From positions 1 to 42,470 of the IMG/VR virus record IMGVR_UViG_3300030732_000036: a stretch of DNA of 42,470 nt; one strand, given 5' to 3'. How positions within the stretch are numbered: position 1 is the stretch's first letter; each line of letters starts with the position of its first letter. The position numbers and the translations under genes were made by a program. Positions 858 through 42,470 of this stretch are shown piece by piece. Below the pieces are notes generated by a model. The model was given only the letters and a program-made list of their open reading frames with translations. It had not been told where the DNA came from and did no database searches. This stretch comes from a virus.

Positions 858-858
858 T

Positions 859-888
859 TTGTACAAATAAACCGGGCTCGGCTATACT
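859..888 (+). promoter_or_regulatory. sigma70-like promoter, rightward: TTGTAC-N18-TATACT, with the -35 inside palindrome TTTGTACAAA (858..867)
   Basis: Hexamers read directly in the 152-nt non-coding gap. Same palindrome-plus -10 module as at 5692-5720, 29435-29463 and 33069-33096. Confidence 0.45.
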
Positions 889-916: not shown

Positions 917-1000
917 ATGCCCCCGTGGGGGCGCTCCCACCCGGTACTGGCCGGGAGGCTTGGCAGCCGGGAGCGCGCCCACGGGGGCATTTTCATTTCG
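917..1000 (+). terminator. structured hairpin S1: 22-bp stem (917-938 / 969-990, 21 of 22 paired), 30-nt loop with two mini-hairpins, then TTTCATTTC
   Basis: Pairing checked base by base; the only mismatch is G930/G977. A T-rich tract follows, and the GGAG RBS of the next gene comes directly after it. Confidence 0.5.
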
Positions 1001-4302: not shown

Positions 4303-4316
4303 GTAAAATTATGCAT

Positions 4317-4437
4317 GCTTCATTTGCTTCATTTGCTTCAAACTGCTTCATTTGAAGCAAATCACCCTTGCTTCATTTGCTTCACTCGCTTCACCCCTAA
4401 AGGGGTGATGAAGCGAAGTGAAGCAAAAAGGTGAAGC
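4317..4437. repeat. iteron array: 7 direct GCTTCA and 4 inverted TGAAGC copies; probable replication origin
   Basis: GCTTCA starts at 4317, 4326, 4335, 4345, 4370, 4379 and 4388. TGAAGC starts at 4353, 4409, 4419 and 4432. Spacing is 9-10 bp. Central palindrome is GCTTCACCCCTAAAGGGGTGATGAAGC. The array has AT-rich flanks and lies directly after the primase-helicase gene. Confidence 0.7.
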
Positions 4438-4475
4438 AGTACAGGGCGTGTAAATTTTTACAGATTGGAGTGGTC

Positions 4476-4814
4476 ATGACCTGGTCGGACGAATCAAGGC
4501 AATCGCGCGGTTACGACGCGGCGTGGGAGAAGGTCAGGGCCCGGGTGGTGGAGAGGGACAAAGGCCTGTGCCAGGCTTGCCTCGTGCATGACCGGGTGAG
4601 CATCGGGCAAGAGGTGGACCACAGGGTGCCCAAGGCCGAATGCGCTAAGCGCGGGTGGACCCGGGCCCAGACCGATGCCGAGTCGAACCTGTGGCTGCTG
4701 TGCAAGCCCTGCCACAAGGCCAAGACGGCGAGGGAGAACGGCCGGGTGCTGGTGCCCAAGGTCGCCTACGGGGTGGACGGATGGCCGCTTGACAACCCCG
4801 AAAGGCTGGTTTAG
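4476..4814 (+). CDS. HNH endonuclease (packaging-associated type)
   Basis: Motif pattern CQAC...EVDHRVP...NLWLLCKPCHKAKT. GGAG lies 5 nt upstream of ATG 4476. The longer ORF from 4431 would start inside the iterons. Confidence 0.85.
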   Translation: MTWSDESRQSRGYDAAWEKVRARVVERDKGLCQACLVHDRVSIGQEVDHRVPKAECAKRGWTRAQTDAESNLWLLCKPCHKAKTARENGRVLVPKVAYGVDGWPLDNPERLV

Positions 4815-4849: not shown

Positions 4850-4934
4850 AAGGGCTTTGCCTTGCGTTCTCAGACGGGAGACCGTTGGTTGCGACCACAA
4901 CCCGAGAACGTGAGGCAAAGCCCTTTTTCTATTT
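4850..4934 (+). terminator. structured hairpin S2: 22-bp stem (4850-4871 / 4904-4925), 32-nt loop with two mini-hairpins, then TTTTTCTATTT
   Basis: All 22 positions pair as plus-strand RNA; the two non-Watson-Crick positions are G-U wobbles. A U-tract follows immediately, then GGAG and ATG 4947. Confidence 0.6.
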
Positions 4935-4946
4935 CCGGAGCGAAAC

Positions 4947-5399
4947 ATGGACCGCATCATCGTCGTGACCACAACGCACGCCAGCACCGCCGACCAGCTC
5001 AACACGCTGCGCAAGCGCGTGATCGAGCAACTGCCGGCGACGGGCTATGTCGTCCTGGTCGTGCCAAACCACGTCGAGGTGCACGAGCTGGGCACGCGGC
5101 AGCAGCCCGAGCGGCATGGGCAGGCCGAAGTCGAACAGATGCTCGGCGAGCCGGGCACTGCGCCAGCGGCGCCGGACACCACGACCAGCCCATCGGGCAG
5201 CAAGGTCGAGCACGTCAGCGCGGAGGTGTTCGACGAACCAATCCGCTACGTGTGGCTGTCCCGGGAGGAAACGACCGATGACCAGCGCGCCATGGCGGTA
5301 GGCGTTGACACGATGCGCGTGCCGCCACGGTGGGCGATCTCGCTCGACCAGCTCACGCCCGACCAGGTGCTGTTCGCCCGTCCGATCTGCGAGCTGTGA
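4947..5399 (+). CDS. hypothetical protein (150 aa)
   Basis: GGAG lies 7 nt upstream of the ATG. GC-rich codon pattern typical of the genome. No motif recognised. Confidence 0.6.
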   Translation: MDRIIVVTTTHASTADQLNTLRKRVIEQLPATGYVVLVVPNHVEVHELGTRQQPERHGQAEVEQMLGEPGTAPAAPDTTTSPSGSKVEHVSAEVFDEPIRYVWLSREETTDDQRAMAVGVDTMRVPPRWAISLDQLTPDQVLFARPICEL

Positions 5400-5401
5400 C
5401 C

Positions 5402-5539
5402 ATGGCAAAGATGGACCTCACCAAATTCCTGGAAGCCGTTGGCGGCAAACCGCTGCCGCAATGGCAGCGCGACATGATCAACGCGCTGTGGGCTGCACGC
5501 GTCACGAAGGATCTGTGCGAAAAATTACGCAAGGGGTAG
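5402..5539 (+). CDS. hypothetical small protein (45 aa)
   Basis: The ATG lies 2 nt after the upstream stop. Weak RBS and short length. Confidence 0.35.
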   Translation: MAKMDLTKFLEAVGGKPLPQWQRDMINALWAARVTKDLCEKLRKG

Positions 5540-5691
5540 GGCGGGTCGAAACTTTAAAAGCTTGACTTTTGGAAGGACCGGCGCTAGCCTTCGATTTAAC
5601 GCAAAGGCATAATTTCTTGGGGAAACATTACTGAGATACAACACAATTCAGGGCAATCGGAGGGGTAGCGGGACCTACGAGCTACATGCAA

Positions 5692-5719
5692 ATTATAGCA
5701 CGAAACCGCATTTGTACAA
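5692..5719 (-). promoter_or_regulatory. leftward extended -10 promoter: TTGTAC-N16-(TGc)TATAAT, with the -35 inside palindrome TTTGTACAAA (5711..5720)
   Basis: Minus strand reads TTATTTGTACAAATGCGGTTTCGTGCTATAATTTGCATG. It points away from terS and against all flanking genes. Confidence 0.45.
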
Positions 5720-5726
5720 ATAATTT

Positions 5727-6215
5727 ATGACCACGAAAACCGCCCCCCGCAGAGCCCGATCCGACAGCGCCACCGCCGCGATAAACGCCGCAAAAAATGC
5801 CGCGCTTGGCGACCTTATGCCCCCCGAGCACGTAAAAATTTCCCCTGAAGTTCTGCCCGACTACATCGCCATCGTCCGCGCCCGCGCGCGCGACGAGTGG
5901 AGCGAACTGGACCTGATCGTCGCCGCCCAGCTGGCCGAGGTGATCGGGCAGCAGCGCGAGCAGACTGCGAAAATCACGCTCGAAGGCGACGTGGTGGAAA
6001 ACATGAAAGGCACCTTGGTTGCCAACCCCCGGGTGACGATTCTCGAACGCCTGGCCGGCCGACAAATGGCCTACATGCGCACGCTGCAGATGGGCGGCCG
6101 GGTGCCCGGCACCGCCGGCGACAAGCGCAAGAAGCAAGGCGCGCGGCAGCTTGAACGTGGCGCCCGCGCCGCGCACCAACAAGCCGCCGACGAAACCAAC
6201 AACCTGCTGGCGTAA
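5727..6215 (+). CDS. terS: terminase small subunit (P27-family-like)
   Basis: Lies immediately upstream of terL and is coupled to it by TAATG. Basic N- and C-termini. The call rests on position and loose similarity only. Confidence 0.6.
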   Translation: MTTKTAPRRARSDSATAAINAAKNAALGDLMPPEHVKISPEVLPDYIAIVRARARDEWSELDLIVAAQLAEVIGQQREQTAKITLEGDVVENMKGTLVANPRVTILERLAGRQMAYMRTLQMGGRVPGTAGDKRKKQGARQLERGARAAHQQAADETNNLLA

Positions 6216-13876: not shown

Positions 13877-15111
13877 TGCCTCTGCGGAACCTCAATCAGC
13901 GACTATCCCGTGGGCGGGTGCTCGACACCCCGCAATCGGGCCGCCTGGCGGAATTGTTCCCCTCGACGGGCGAACACGGCCCCGCATACCCTTACCCCAG
14001 CCTGGTGTTCCCTGCCGATACCGGCAAAGAGATCAGCGCCTATATCACCGTGCTGCCGGTCGGCCTGACGACCTTCGAAGCCGACAATCTGGGGCGCATG
14101 GTGGCGAGTGGCCCGGACGGCGTCTACACCTTCCAATTCCAGCTGGCGGCCAATGGTGTGGATGTCGGTGCTCCGGCGACGGGGACGCTGACCATTGGCG
14201 CTGCGGCACCGACCGTTATAAACTGCACCCCCGCCAACGCCGGTGCGGCGGGGCTCACGGCCGCCATCACAAACGGAGGCTTGACGACCATCTCGTGCAC
14301 CCCCGCCAATGCCGCCGCAGCAGGCGCGACGGCCACGGTCACGAACGGCGCGGTGAATACCGTGGCATGCACGCCCGCCGGTGCCGCAGCGGGCGGCCTG
14401 ACCGCAACGGTGACGTTCGGAGGGCTGACGACCGTTTCCTGCGCCCCCGCGGCCGCGCTCGCCGGGGGATTAACCGCCACGGTGACGAACGGGGCGGCCG
14501 TGATCGTCACCTGCACGCCGGCGAACGCGATTGCGGCCGGGCGTACCGCTATAATTTCTGGAGAAGACATGAGCGAACCGATCACCCTTGCCCGGGCTAA
14601 GGCTCACCTGCGGGTGGTCGTGAGCGATGACGACGACTACATATCCGACCTCATCGTGGCGGCCCGCCAGATGATCGAACAGCGCACCCAGCGCGCCATT
14701 GTGACCAGGACCGAGTCCCTCGCCTTCGACACCTTCCCTTCGGTCGTTCGGCTACCGTGGCCGCCGTTCTCCCAGATCCTCGAGATCAGCTATATCGACG
14801 AGAATGGCGCTTCTGCCACCCTGCCGCCGGAAAACTACGTCGTCAACGACTACGCCGAGCCCGCGAGGATGACGCGTGCCAGCGGCGCCACGTGGCCCAC
14901 CCACGCCGCGCAAGAGGCCGCCGTGGTGATCACCTATGAGACCGGGTACGCGGGCGCCAACGCCGTCCCCGTGCCGCTCAAACAGTGGATGCTGCTGGCA
15001 ATCGGCGCGATGTACGAGAATCGCGAGCAGTGCGCCGCCGGCGTGCAAATCTATTCGATCCCGGAGGACTTCATGGGCCTGCTGTGGCAACCCTACATGG
15101 TGTACATGTAA
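13876..15111 (+). CDS. Ig-like domain + 5 x 24-aa Cys repeats fused in frame to a gp6-like head-tail connector
   Basis: TAATG coupling to the upstream gene. Cys at residues 117, 141, 165, 189 and 213. The C-terminal 180 aa have the connector signature ITLARAKAHLRV..DDDDYISDLIVAARQMIEQ. Confidence 0.7.
   Translation: MPLRNLNQRLSRGRVLDTPQSGRLAELFPSTGEHGPAYPYPSLVFPADTGKEISAYITVLPVGLTTFEADNLGRMVASGPDGVYTFQFQLAANGVDVGAPATGTLTIGAAAPTVINCTPANAGAAGLTAAITNGGLTTISCTPANAAAAGATATVTNGAVNTVACTPAGAAAGGLTATVTFGGLTTVSCAPAAALAGGLTATVTNGAAVIVTCTPANAIAAGRTAIISGEDMSEPITLARAKAHLRVVVSDDDDYISDLIVAARQMIEQRTQRAIVTRTESLAFDTFPSVVRLPWPPFSQILEISYIDENGASATLPPENYVVNDYAEPARMTRASGATWPTHAAQEAAVVITYETGYAGANAVPVPLKQWMLLAIGAMYENREQCAAGVQIYSIPEDFMGLLWQPYMVYM
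14569..15111 (+). CDS. head-tail connector (gp6-like), possible independently initiated short isoform
   Basis: In-frame ATG 14569 is preceded by GGAGAAG. The resulting 180-aa product is a typical stand-alone connector in size and N-terminus. Confidence 0.55.
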   Translation: MSEPITLARAKAHLRVVVSDDDDYISDLIVAARQMIEQRTQRAIVTRTESLAFDTFPSVVRLPWPPFSQILEISYIDENGASATLPPENYVVNDYAEPARMTRASGATWPTHAAQEAAVVITYETGYAGANAVPVPLKQWMLLAIGAMYENREQCAAGVQIYSIPEDFMGLLWQPYMVYM

Positions 15112-29197: not shown

Positions 29198-29398
29198 TTA
29201 TGCGGCGCGCCGATTAAACAGAACCGTGGCAGCTTCCAGCGTCATGCCCTTTTCGACATAGCGCCAGGTTTTCGACATGCCGCCCTTGCAATGTGGCGCG
29301 TAGTTCTCGCACAGCTTGCACACGCCGAAGGTTTCGCCGTCCGCGATCAAGGCATATTTGATGCCGCGTTTGTTGGTGGCTGCCTTGATCGCTTTCAT
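29198..29398 (-). CDS. small Cys-containing protein (66 aa)
   Basis: AGGGGAAG RBS. Contains CKLC ... HC motif. First gene after the internal promoter at 29435-29462. Confidence 0.55.
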   Translation of the reverse strand: MKAIKAATNKRGIKYALIADGETFGVCKLCENYAPHCKGGMSKTWRYVEKGMTLEAATVLFNRRAA

Positions 29399-29434: not shown

Positions 29435-29462
29435 ATAATAGCACAACCAAAAATTTGTACAA
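29435..29462 (-). promoter_or_regulatory. leftward extended -10 promoter: TTGTAC-N16-(TGc)TATTAT, overlapping near-palindrome TTTGTACAAG (29454..29463)
   Basis: Minus strand reads AGCTTGTACAAATTTTTGGTTGTGCTATTATCCC. It lies immediately after the SNF2 stop codon. Confidence 0.5.
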
Positions 29463-29465
29463 GCT

Positions 29466-39963: not shown

Positions 39964-40326
39964 TTACGCGGTCAGTTCGATTTCTTCGATGCGCGCCAGC
40001 ACCGCCGCGTAGTCGTCGGCCTTGATCTCGCCGCCCTTGGTGGCGCCGAATTCCTTCATCAGGTCGATACCGGCCTGCTTACCGCTGGCCTTCATCAGCT
40101 TCGTGAGGGCGGGGGCGATGTCGCCATCGTAGGTCAGCGTGGGGGTCTTGACCTCTTCGACCTTGACCTTGGTGTCGGTCTTGGTCTTCGTGTCCGTCTT
40201 GGTCTTGACTTCGGGTTCCTGGGTTGCGGCACCTTGCGAAGCGGTGCGGCCGGCGGTCAGGGTGATGGCGGCGGCCAGCTCGCGGATAGCCGAGGCGTGT
40301 TCGTTGATTGCGATTTCGAGAGACAT
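39964..40326 (-). CDS. hypothetical protein with KTKTDT tandem repeat (120 aa); first gene of the leftward operon
   Basis: GAAGGAAA RBS. An 18-nt tandem duplication encodes [12 protein letters not shown]. Confidence 0.6.
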
Positions 40327-40397: not shown

Positions 40398-40433
40398 GCA
40401 CTTTTTACTAATTATTTTTGTACGAAATTTTAC

Positions 40434-40462
40434 TTGTATATGTGGCGGCTTCTGTGCATAAT
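40434..40462 (+). promoter_or_regulatory. candidate rightward early promoter: TTGTAT-N17-CATAAT, flanked by TTTGTACGAA (40417-26) and TTTGTACAAA (40467-76)
   Basis: Hexamers read directly. The perfect palindrome sits at about +5 to +14, between the promoter and the GGAG RBS of the Cro-like gene. Confidence 0.4.
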
Positions 40463-40491
40463 CGCGTTTGTACAAATAACCGGAGAACATC

Positions 40492-40734
40492 ATGGCGAGG
40501 AAGAAAAAGGCGGCGAACGGCGTGTCGCTAGTCATTGAAAAGGCGAACCCCAAGACCCAGGCCCAGGTGGCGCTGGATATGGGCGTCACCCAGCAGGTGG
40601 TAAGCCATTGGCTGAAGGTGGGCTATATGCCCTTGATCCGGGCCCGCGACGCCGAGGCCCTGTATGGTGTGCCGCGGCGCAAGCTGGTCGACCCCAAGCT
40701 GCTGGGGATGCTCGACGACAAGGGGGCGCGGTGA
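40492..40734 (+). CDS. Cro / YdaS-like helix-turn-helix regulator
   Basis: GGAG RBS. HTH segment TQAQVALDMGVTQQVVSHWLKVGYMP. First gene of the rightward operon. Confidence 0.7.
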   Translation: MARKKKAANGVSLVIEKANPKTQAQVALDMGVTQQVVSHWLKVGYMPLIRARDAEALYGVPRRKLVDPKLLGMLDDKGAR

Positions 40735-41910: not shown

Positions 41911-42470
41911 ATGACAGACGGTGAGATTAACGAAATAACGATGGGCAAGCTCGGGAAGTGGCCGTCATTCGAGGCGCAGGCTTGGGCTTGCAGAGTGGCG
42001 CATGCGGTCCTCGCAGCGCAGCAAGACAGCGACTGCCGCAAGTATTGCCAGCGTGAAGCGGACCAGGCCGCCCGGCCTGCCGCTGCGGACGACCATCTGC
42101 CTAGCCCGACCGGCGAACAGCTTTACACGATGGTAACAAGCCGCTTCAAGTCGGGCAGCTTCCCCTGGGCGACGGTGGCGGAGAGCGGGAAGGAAGCCTG
42201 GAGCGCGGCGGCTGCTGAACTGGCGTTTGCGCCGGACACGATCATGGCGAAATATTCCCCGCGACCTGCCGCTGCGGACGCAGGCGGGCTGTTGGATGCT
42301 GACCTGTTCGAAGAAATGGTGGAGGAAGGCTACACAGCCTTTGCCGAGGACAGCACCGCCTGGCGCAGCGACCCAGAGGCCACACATTCTTCCGGGCGCG
42401 AATCGTTCGCAGTTGCATTGCGGGCTGCGCTCGCCGTTCGACCAACTGCTTGCAGCGCAGATGGTCAGGG
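41911..42470 (+). CDS. hypothetical protein, N-terminal part of a wrap-around ORF (continues at 1..283)
   Basis: GGAGG RBS. I translated the frame by hand to the window end and found no stop. Contains a duplicated RPAAAD motif. Confidence 0.6.
   Translation, partial: MTDGEINEITMGKLGKWPSFEAQAWACRVAHAVLAAQQDSDCRKYCQREADQAARPAAADDHLPSPTGEQLYTMVTSRFKSGSFPWATVAESGKEAWSAAAAELAFAPDTIMAKYSPRPAAADAGGLLDADLFEEMVEEGYTAFAEDSTAWRSDPEATHSSGRESFAVALRAALAVRPTACSADGQ
42372..42470. repeat. terminal direct repeat, copy 2 (identical to 1..99)
   Basis: See copy 1. Confidence 0.95.

Follow-up and report, generated by a model that had tools for sequence, protein, structure and literature searches.

An HK97-type cos site and a private insertion with a putative operator-controlled leftward promoter upstream of terS in an uncultured phage genome

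Experimentally defined genome ends are available for Escherichia phage HK97 and for Rhizobium phage 16-3, whose cos sites have 3' overhangs and whose terminases are assisted by HNH. Both phages share the order HNH, cos, terS, terL, and portal, a G-rich tract upstream of cos and a left end with a ATTTAACGC box. The mature left end is situated 49 nt before terS in HK97 and 45 nt before terS in 16-3. Also common to both is a binding site for the small terminase TerS; it spans +15 to +29, includes C:G at +21 and an A/T tract, and is read by Arg/Asp residues. In HK97 this is the minimal TerS site; it needs the A/T tract, its essential C:G pair at +21 is read by Arg128, and T16 is read by Arg7 (Chechik et al.; PMC11331095).

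Noncoding RNAs from promoters set against the direction of the late genes have been observed experimentally in Pseudomonas phage PAK_P3 and, with the oop and paQ RNAs, in lambda. The early antisense RNAs of PAK_P3 run over late/structural genes and have been proposed to suppress leaky late expression at the early stage of infection (PMC4933390). Two further kinds of element are relevant for comparison, namely the Cro/CI operators OR and OL of the lambdoid phages, which are short inverted repeats reiterated at promoters, and the phage morons, which consist of promoter, gene, and terminator.

Here we describe the gap in front of terS in the IMG/VR virus record IMGVR_UViG_3300030732_000036. The window denotes the whole stretch of DNA that was analysed, 42,470 nt in length. 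Its nucleotides 1–99 are identical to nucleotides 42372–42470, indicating a circular assembly with a terminal overlap of 99 nt and hence a complete unique genome of about 42,371 bp (GC 64%) with an arbitrary start point. In a circular assembly cos should lie at an internal position. The gap is flanked by packaging genes of the HK97/Hendrixvirinae type, with HNH on one side and terS, terL, and portal on the other side; terL resembles HK97 and 16-3 at the DNA level. In contrast to HK97 and 16-3, two additional open reading frames, 4947–5399 (ORF150) and 5402–5539 (ORF45), are located between HNH and cos, and the predicted cut is 139 nt instead of 45–49 nt away from terS because of a 90-nt insertion. 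In our preferred reading, to which we assign a probability of roughly 0.6, the gap consists of an HK97-type cos site followed by a private insertion with an operator-controlled leftward promoter, which would direct a noncoding antisense RNA across cos. This is tidy phage biology and not a new kind of element. The coordinates of the features are listed in Table 1.

Table 1. Features of the cos–terS gap and related sites in the window
Feature	Position	Strand	Sequence	Remarks
HNH endonuclease gene	4431-4814			Pfam HNH at 4e-8
G-rich tract upstream of cos	5533..5548	+	GGGGTAGGGCGGGTCG	covers the last bases of ORF 5402-5539
Predicted 9-nt 3' cohesive end	5579..5587		CGGCGCTAG	predicted nicks: top strand 5587/5588, bottom strand 5578/5579; from homology
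Conserved left-end box	5588..5601	+	CCTTCGATTTAACG	predicted first bases of the mature genome
Predicted TerS-binding site	5602..5616	+	CAAAGGCATAATTTC	+15 to +29 from the predicted cut
Lineage-specific insertion, 90 nt	5637..5726			separates the cos/TerS box from the terS ATG; from alignment with L133/L136
Extended -10	5692..5700	-	TGCTATAAT	predicted start near 5685, leftward
Perfect 12-bp palindrome, putative operator	5710..5721		ATTTGTACAAAT	core TTTGTACAAA at 5711-5720
terS (Hendrixvirinae-type small terminase)	5727..6215	+		PHROG 5601 at 3.6e-31; homologues carry PF26841
s1	858..888	+	TTTGTACAAA (TTGTAC), then N18, TATACT	
s2 (site in the cos–terS gap)	5692..5719	-	TTGTAC-N16-TGcTATAAT	
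s3	29435..29463	-	TTGTAC-N16-TGcTATTAT	
Divergent early control region	40411..40476			s4' and s4
Candidate Cro-like HTH regulator, 80 aa	40492..40734	+		directly after s4; proposed to bind the palindrome

The cos site and the TerS-binding site

A cos site had been expected in this neighborhood by the sequence-only reading, and it was indeed found within the gap: by alignment to relatives and to the ends of HK97 and 16-3, positions 5533–5636 comprise a cos site of the HK97 type. Relatives of TerS were drawn from IMG/VR, the JGI metagenomes, and NCBI, and the ends of their contigs took the place of end mapping. Relatives with physical contig ends at this site can be aligned to 5533–5636 base for base. 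At least eight independent contigs of relatives begin exactly at the aligned CCT, 46–49 nt before terS; the contigs starting at CCTCTTTT(C/T)AA or CCTTCTTTTTAACG are L005, L006, L008, L011, L013, L031, L033, L042, and L135. The contigs of other relatives read through the cut sequence. A relative contig of 42.5 kb has both ends, with the start CCTCTTTTCAAACTC and the finish ...GGTAAGGAC, and a second relative contig stops at this same base. Three read-through contigs contain GGTAAGGAC-CGYGCCGAG-CCTCTTTTC, whereas the 9 nt CGYGCCGAG are missing between the two ends of the 42.5-kb contig. The missing nucleotides can be explained by end repair, which removes a 3' overhang, and we infer from this a 3' polarity of the cohesive end. 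In HK97 and 16-3 10-nt 3' overhangs are found at the aligned place; as judged from the relatives only, the overhang would be 9 nt long here. One relative contig of 42 kb (L134) starts 13 nt before the cut with GGACCGCGACTAG and not at CCT. This end may be an assembly wrap-around and not a physical end.

In the window the base-for-base alignment with the relatives yields the order ...GGAAGGAC (up to 5578), CGGCGCTAG (5579–5587), and CCTTCGATTTAACGC (from 5588). L133, the Massilia and Variovorax prophages, HK97, and 16-3 all have the G-rich tract at an equal distance upstream of the cut. The left-end box CCTTCGATTTAACG is identical in the Massilia prophages and aligns with the left end of HK97, GTTTGAATTTAACG. 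Moreover, the ATTTAACGC box and the GC-rich overhang of the window align with the experimentally defined termini of HK97 and 16-3, and the cohesive end of 16-3, CCGGCGTCGG, resembles the GC-rich CGGCGCTAG. The cut positions were carried over from relatives with 52–80% terS identity, and the exact positions given for this phage are predicted on that basis. By this approach cos, the predicted cohesive end, and the predicted TerS docking site were located by sequence alone in an uncultured high-GC lineage of HK97-like phages, and the use of contig ends for placing cos can be repeated on other genomes.

In the predicted TerS-binding site of the window, position +21 is C and positions +22 to +28 read ATAATTT, and the residues R7, D9, E126, and R128 of HK97 TerS align with R11, D13, D132, and R134 of the window TerS. 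That terS has no Shine–Dalgarno (SD) sequence, as pointed out before, is true and applies to the whole family. The relatives keep the motif AACATT(C/A)C 5–12 nt before the terS ATG, with no SD. In the window this motif is found at 5625–5632, where it has been left 90 nt upstream by the insertion. By eye, a 14-codon upstream ORF (MQIIARNRICTNNL, 5686–5730, plus strand) was noticed within the insertion, the TGA of which overlaps the terS ATG (ATGA). This overlap could provide translational coupling of the SD-less terS; the small ORF itself lacks a good SD and could also be due to chance.

The insertion and the leftward promoter motif

The 90 nt in front of terS are missing from every relative found, which are about 30 in number. 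The distance between the predicted left end and the terS ATG is 26–49 nt in 28 relatives as compared to 139 nt in the window. The closest relative, L133/L136, has a TerS with 80% identity and is syntenic (primase, HNH, ORF135, gap, terS); it tracks window positions 5530–5636 almost base for base and then continues directly with ATG, leaving a clean 90-nt gap in the alignment. Scans of IMG/VR, metagenomes, and GTDB with TerS did not reveal a relative with more than 80% identity, and neither did a search of 5.8 billion proteins with TerS. The insertion itself had no match in phage records using megablast and blastn. The sequence-only reading had named absence of the motif from related genomes as an argument against itself. 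The whole 90-nt segment with the promoter motif is absent from all relatives, including the syntenic one with 80% identity.

At the same place between cos and terS a small ORF of about 60 aa is present in L029 (2781–3003), L007, and L012. Because some relatives carry small ORFs there, the cos–terS spacer is a recurrent insertion spot in this phage group. In this respect the insertion resembles the phage morons, with which it also has in common that it is lineage specific and brings a putative promoter of its own in between two conserved features. In contrast to the morons it contains neither a gene nor a terminator, only a putative operator and promoter.

Several searches for the origin and the content of the insertion can be reported briefly. 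The exact 14-mer ATTTGTACAAATAA is common to the insertion and to the site at 858. Scanning IMG/VR with this 14-mer operator gave scattered chance matches and no contig with the same geometry. An 18-mer from the promoter matched the IMG/VR contigs L015–L018, but these belong to an unrelated family and the number of matches is about the chance expectation, and this lead was discarded. In the four contigs the shared sequence (GGTTTCGTGCTATAAT / ATTATAGCACGAAACCGCCC) is a TGCTATAAT promoter that precedes a minus-strand gene of their own by about 60 nt. Upon inspection by eye no acceptable -10 for a plus-strand promoter or for a leaderless start of terS was seen in the insertion.

The promoter motif TTGTAC-N16-TGcTATAAT is present on the minus strand at 5692–5719, just as it had been described. 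The reverse complement of this stretch reads TTGTAC-AAATGCGGTTTCGTGC-TATAAT with a spacer of 16 nt, and the motif falls into the extended -10 class because TGC directly precedes the -10. It had been called the best -10 hexamer in the genome. This description is correct insofar as the motif is the best extended -10 and the sole TGnTATAAT, but the hexamer TATAAT is not unique and occurs twice (5692–5697, minus strand; 14550–14555, plus strand) with 1.8 occurrences expected. TGNTATAAT has one occurrence in the 42.5-kb window as compared to 0.10 expected, and at least one occurrence was found in 9 of 100 shuffles. The -35 TTGTAC agrees with TTGACA at three of six positions and is not close to this sequence, which is the sigma-70 consensus; for this reason the promoter was not listed by the consensus scan. 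An extended -10 can make up for a poor -35. Nevertheless, by itself the motif is only marginally above chance. The leftward promoter gains credibility because two other palindromes of the genome belong to putative promoters with an equivalent geometry, and an SD and an ATG follow exactly downstream of one of these. We consider the leftward promoter together with its operator to be real and probably functional.

With regard to the leftward transcript, the earlier reading had counted no ORF of more than 10 codons ahead of the antisense part, and we likewise found no plausible minus-strand ORF downstream. The minus-strand ORFs are shadow frames under ORF150, and a coding reading of the minus strand was rejected on these grounds. 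The plus-strand ORF 4947–5399 has a syntenic counterpart in L133 (36% identity, E = 4e-24), and its GC3 is 0.87 as compared to 0.70 in the antisense frame. No relatives of ORF150 were found in IMG/VR. Judged by conservation and codon usage this plus-strand ORF is real. Any leftward transcript would be noncoding and, as anticipated, antisense to ORFs 5402–5539 and 4947–5399. A discrete minus-strand RNA of 100–150 nt had also been proposed, and for this species we obtained no support. A search for a minus-strand terminator in 5400–5690 gave none, the predicted folds of both strands of the gap were no better than shuffles (z -0.72 and -0.2), and Rfam (gathering and permissive thresholds) and ARAGORN found no RNA family and no tRNA in the gap. 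Since there is no terminator, significant fold, or Rfam match, no discrete RNA product is defined.

The predicted promoter resembles those of the PAK_P3 antisense RNAs and of the lambda oop and paQ RNAs in being set against the late-gene direction and in yielding a noncoding RNA. Whereas the RNAs of PAK_P3 and lambda have been observed, the RNA considered here is a prediction. Unlike these examples, the promoter is located in the cos–terS spacer and would transcribe across cos, and its product is not bounded by a terminator.

The palindrome family and a candidate regulator

The sequence TTTGTACAAA at 5711–5720 ends 6 nt before the terS ATG (5727), and the TTGTAC on the minus strand of the palindrome (5719–5714) serves as the putative -35. 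Allowing at most one mismatch, TTTGTACAAA has seven matches in the genome with 0.18 expected; for TTGTACAAATA six matches were found with 0.04 expected. Five copies of the palindrome are situated in AT-rich intergenic DNA (858, 5711, 29454, 40417, and 40467), and each of the five falls on a core element of a promoter: the -35 in three cases, a spacer in one, and a start site in one. TTGTAC-N15-19-TAnnnT was found only at three palindromes (s1, s2, and s3). A -10 matching in at least five of six positions lies 16–18 nt away at three of the five sites, a number that was reached in 0 of 20000 flank shuffles.

The surroundings of the sites differ. Site s1 directly follows a stop codon; downstream of it come a Y-shaped hairpin and the genes for the methylase and the primase. 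The hairpin (917–995, plus strand) is very stable (-69.5 kcal/mol, z -5.4), lies about 20 nt past the predicted s1 start, ahead of the methylase gene, and is succeeded by UUUUCAUUU. The combination of the s1 promoter with an immediate terminator-like structure recalls the lambdoid PR'-tR' antitermination units or a small-RNA gene of about 100 nt. Site s3 takes up the gap of 67 nt behind the SNF2 helicase gene, and 30 nt further on the SD GAAGGGGAAG-N5-ATG of a 66-aa ORF (29201–29398) is found, as in a textbook promoter. In the divergent early control region the s4' palindrome (40417–40426) lies in the spacer of the leftward early promoter TATACA-N18-AATAAT and the s4 palindrome (40467–40476) at the start site of the rightward early promoter TTGTAT-N17-CATAAT. 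The two divergent early promoters are placed back to back (40411–40463) and have one -35 region in common, as TTGTAT at 40435–40440 is TATACA on the other strand.

One of the options raised by the sequence-only reading was that the palindrome is a protein-binding site. This option was strengthened considerably, as the palindrome is over-represented and every intergenic copy is on a promoter element. Its distribution makes protein binding at the palindrome very likely, and we regard it as a putative operator, and the composite of palindrome and -10 is, as far as the sequence can tell, a real and reused unit. Because of its position on core promoter elements the palindrome reads as the operator of a repressor.

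The logic is similar to that of the lambdoid OR and OL operators inasmuch as the repeat always coincides with the -35, spacer, or start site of a promoter and two copies are found in a divergent control region beside a small HTH gene. Unlike the lambdoid operators, which are tripartite, the sites are scattered with one per promoter, and one of the promoters presumed to be regulated points away from any gene. A further difference is that the genome looks virulent. This view is based on its own DNA polymerase, exonuclease, and Gp2.5-like SSB, together with the failure to see an integrase or CI among the proteins scanned. The genes named belong to a minus-strand replication operon, which starts at 40326 and also encodes a RusA-like resolvase and the SNF2 helicase. 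The earlier statement that more than 15 kb on both sides of the gap are plus-strand has to be corrected for the left side, where the plus-strand run is only about 7.7 kb long.

The product of 40492–40734 may be the regulator. It has weak matches to PHROG 638 and 35 (E about 8e-4), Pfam HTH_3 (0.01), and YdaS (0.02), and matches to Cro proteins of the PDB are sub-threshold (E 0.3–0.5). The AlphaFold model from the single sequence has a pLDDT of 55, and a search for homologues of the protein returned none. With these weak similarities the 80-aa protein is the best candidate for the regulator, and a candidate only. The five-site operator regulon provides a handle on this unannotated regulator.

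Readings of the insertion

In our preferred reading the insertion would have added another copy of the phage's own 10–12-bp operator palindrome ATTTGTACAAAT and joined it at promoter spacing to the minus-strand extended -10. The resulting host sigma-70 promoter would be active early and would be shut off as the phage regulator accumulates. This mode of working is the most likely one since the same operator is found on all five promoter-like sites including the divergent early pair. Transcription would start near 5685 and proceed leftward through the TerS site and cos; the RNA would then run antisense into ORF 5402–5539, ORF 4947–5399, and the HNH gene, noncoding and with no defined end. The likeliest effect would be to hinder transcription of the early operon from continuing rightward too soon into the genes for packaging and structure, by collision of polymerases or by antisense pairing; such a role has been proposed for the early antisense RNAs of PAK_P3. 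In this scheme the firing of the promoter, the nature of its regulator, and when and why the transcript is made are all predicted. Besides the poor -35, the lack of a terminator and of a significant fold, and the weak similarities of the candidate regulator, two points speak against it. The insertion is not conserved in any relative and could be recent and neutral, and a repressor that acts on rightward early promoters too would leave the drive of the late genes unexplained. The putatively regulated, outward-facing promoter offers a cheap and testable example of how antisense RNA or collision may exert control where the early genes of a virulent siphovirus meet the late ones. If the promoter is inactive or dispensable, an ordinary cos site and an insertion scar are left.

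We considered several alternatives. First, only the palindrome could matter: a regulator bound to an operator 6 nt before terS would act as a roadblock or timer of rightward transcription into the structural genes, and the -10 would be incidental. The strong over-representation of the palindrome family, its abutting on the terS ATG, and the s4 copy, which is directly upstream of the start of a plus-strand gene and has no minus-strand promoter, would fit this view. An incidental -10 is, however, difficult to reconcile with the good -10 elements at 16–18 nt from three of the five palindromes (0 of 20000 shuffles) and with the -10 of s2 being the best of the set and the sole TGnTATAAT in the genome, and we regard a pure roadblock as unlikely.

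Second, the insertion could be a neutral scar of illegitimate recombination or an unpurged moron reduced to its promoter, in which case the promoter may fire without consequence. The insertion is unique to this genome, the unrelated small ORFs at the same spot in L029, L007, and L012 suggest that insertions are tolerated there, and its left edge ATACAACAC is weakly similar to the start of terS, ATGACCACG, as in a junction duplication. Random filler would nevertheless hardly be expected to contain an exact 14-nt copy of the genome's operator (ATTTGTACAAATAA) in promoter geometry, and we rate this explanation as improbable, somewhat below the roadblock.

Third, the insertion might be an auxiliary packaging signal, that is, a second TerS-binding or cosB-like element aiding the primary site. 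In lambda a cosB of about 190 bp is situated between cosN and Nu1, which can be counted in favor of such an element. By eye, CGAAACCGCATTTGT (5701–5715) agrees with the HK97 TerS site CTAACCCGATTTTTT in 10 of 15 positions including the key C, and AGGGGTAG from the G-tract of cos recurs at 5661. The agreement of CGAAACCGCATTTGT with the window's own TerS box is, however, only 7 of 15, and about 30 relatives package without such an element. A cosB of the lambda type, with several TerS sites and IHF, is not found either: the gap contains no match to the IHF consensus WATCAANNNNTTR, and when the insertion was examined as a degenerate tandem copy of cos, only AGGGGTAG was common to both and the local alignment with the cos segment had p = 0.35, so that the tandem copy was rejected. 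We regard an auxiliary signal as very improbable.

Fourth, the position of the promoter, about 100 bp inward of the left cohesive end, could be purposeful: its output would signal which state the genome is in and would gate terminase at cos. On freshly injected linear DNA only a run-off RNA of about 98 nt would be made, ending at the cos end; after ligation of cos or in concatemers a long antisense RNA would be made and polymerase would be swept through the TerS docking and nick sites; later the phage regulator would silence transcription across cos and thereby time the engagement of terminase. If true, this would amount to direct transcriptional control of packaging initiation, which to our knowledge has not been described for cos phages. 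It is the only reading that would raise the interest of the finding. Transcription across cos as a packaging gate is possible but unsupported, and we give such a purpose a very small chance.

Least probable of all is the model put forward by the sequence-only reading, in which the leftward promoter interferes with a weak rightward late promoter TTGACT-N17-TAGCCT (5562–5590, plus strand): the sequence is present, its TTGACT matches the -35 consensus in five of six positions and is conserved in L133, but only there, whereas TAGCCT spans the predicted cut 5587/5588, GAGCCT or something else stands at this place in more distant relatives, the consensus scan did not report the pair, and the conservation is explained by the cos nick flank, so that no interference with such a promoter needs to be invoked. 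Promoter-like matches near terS in phages of this kind can simply be cos.

Two further observations concern the DNA to the left of the gap. The AT-rich gap between primase and HNH (4303–4430) contains an array of GCTTCA (TGAAGC) with about eight direct and four inverted repeats; L136 has another repeat, CTTTACAT, in the equivalent place. The repeats at 4303–4430 look like origin iterons or sites for a regulator. Between HNH and ORF150 a second Y-shaped terminator-like structure with a U-run was identified (4850–4926, plus strand, z -5.8). Its architecture is kept in the 80% relative (L136, 4230–4330) despite base changes, with GGGAGACCG, GGTTGC, and ACAACC conserved. The structure possibly represents an RNA element that has been conserved, or a terminator within the packaging operon.
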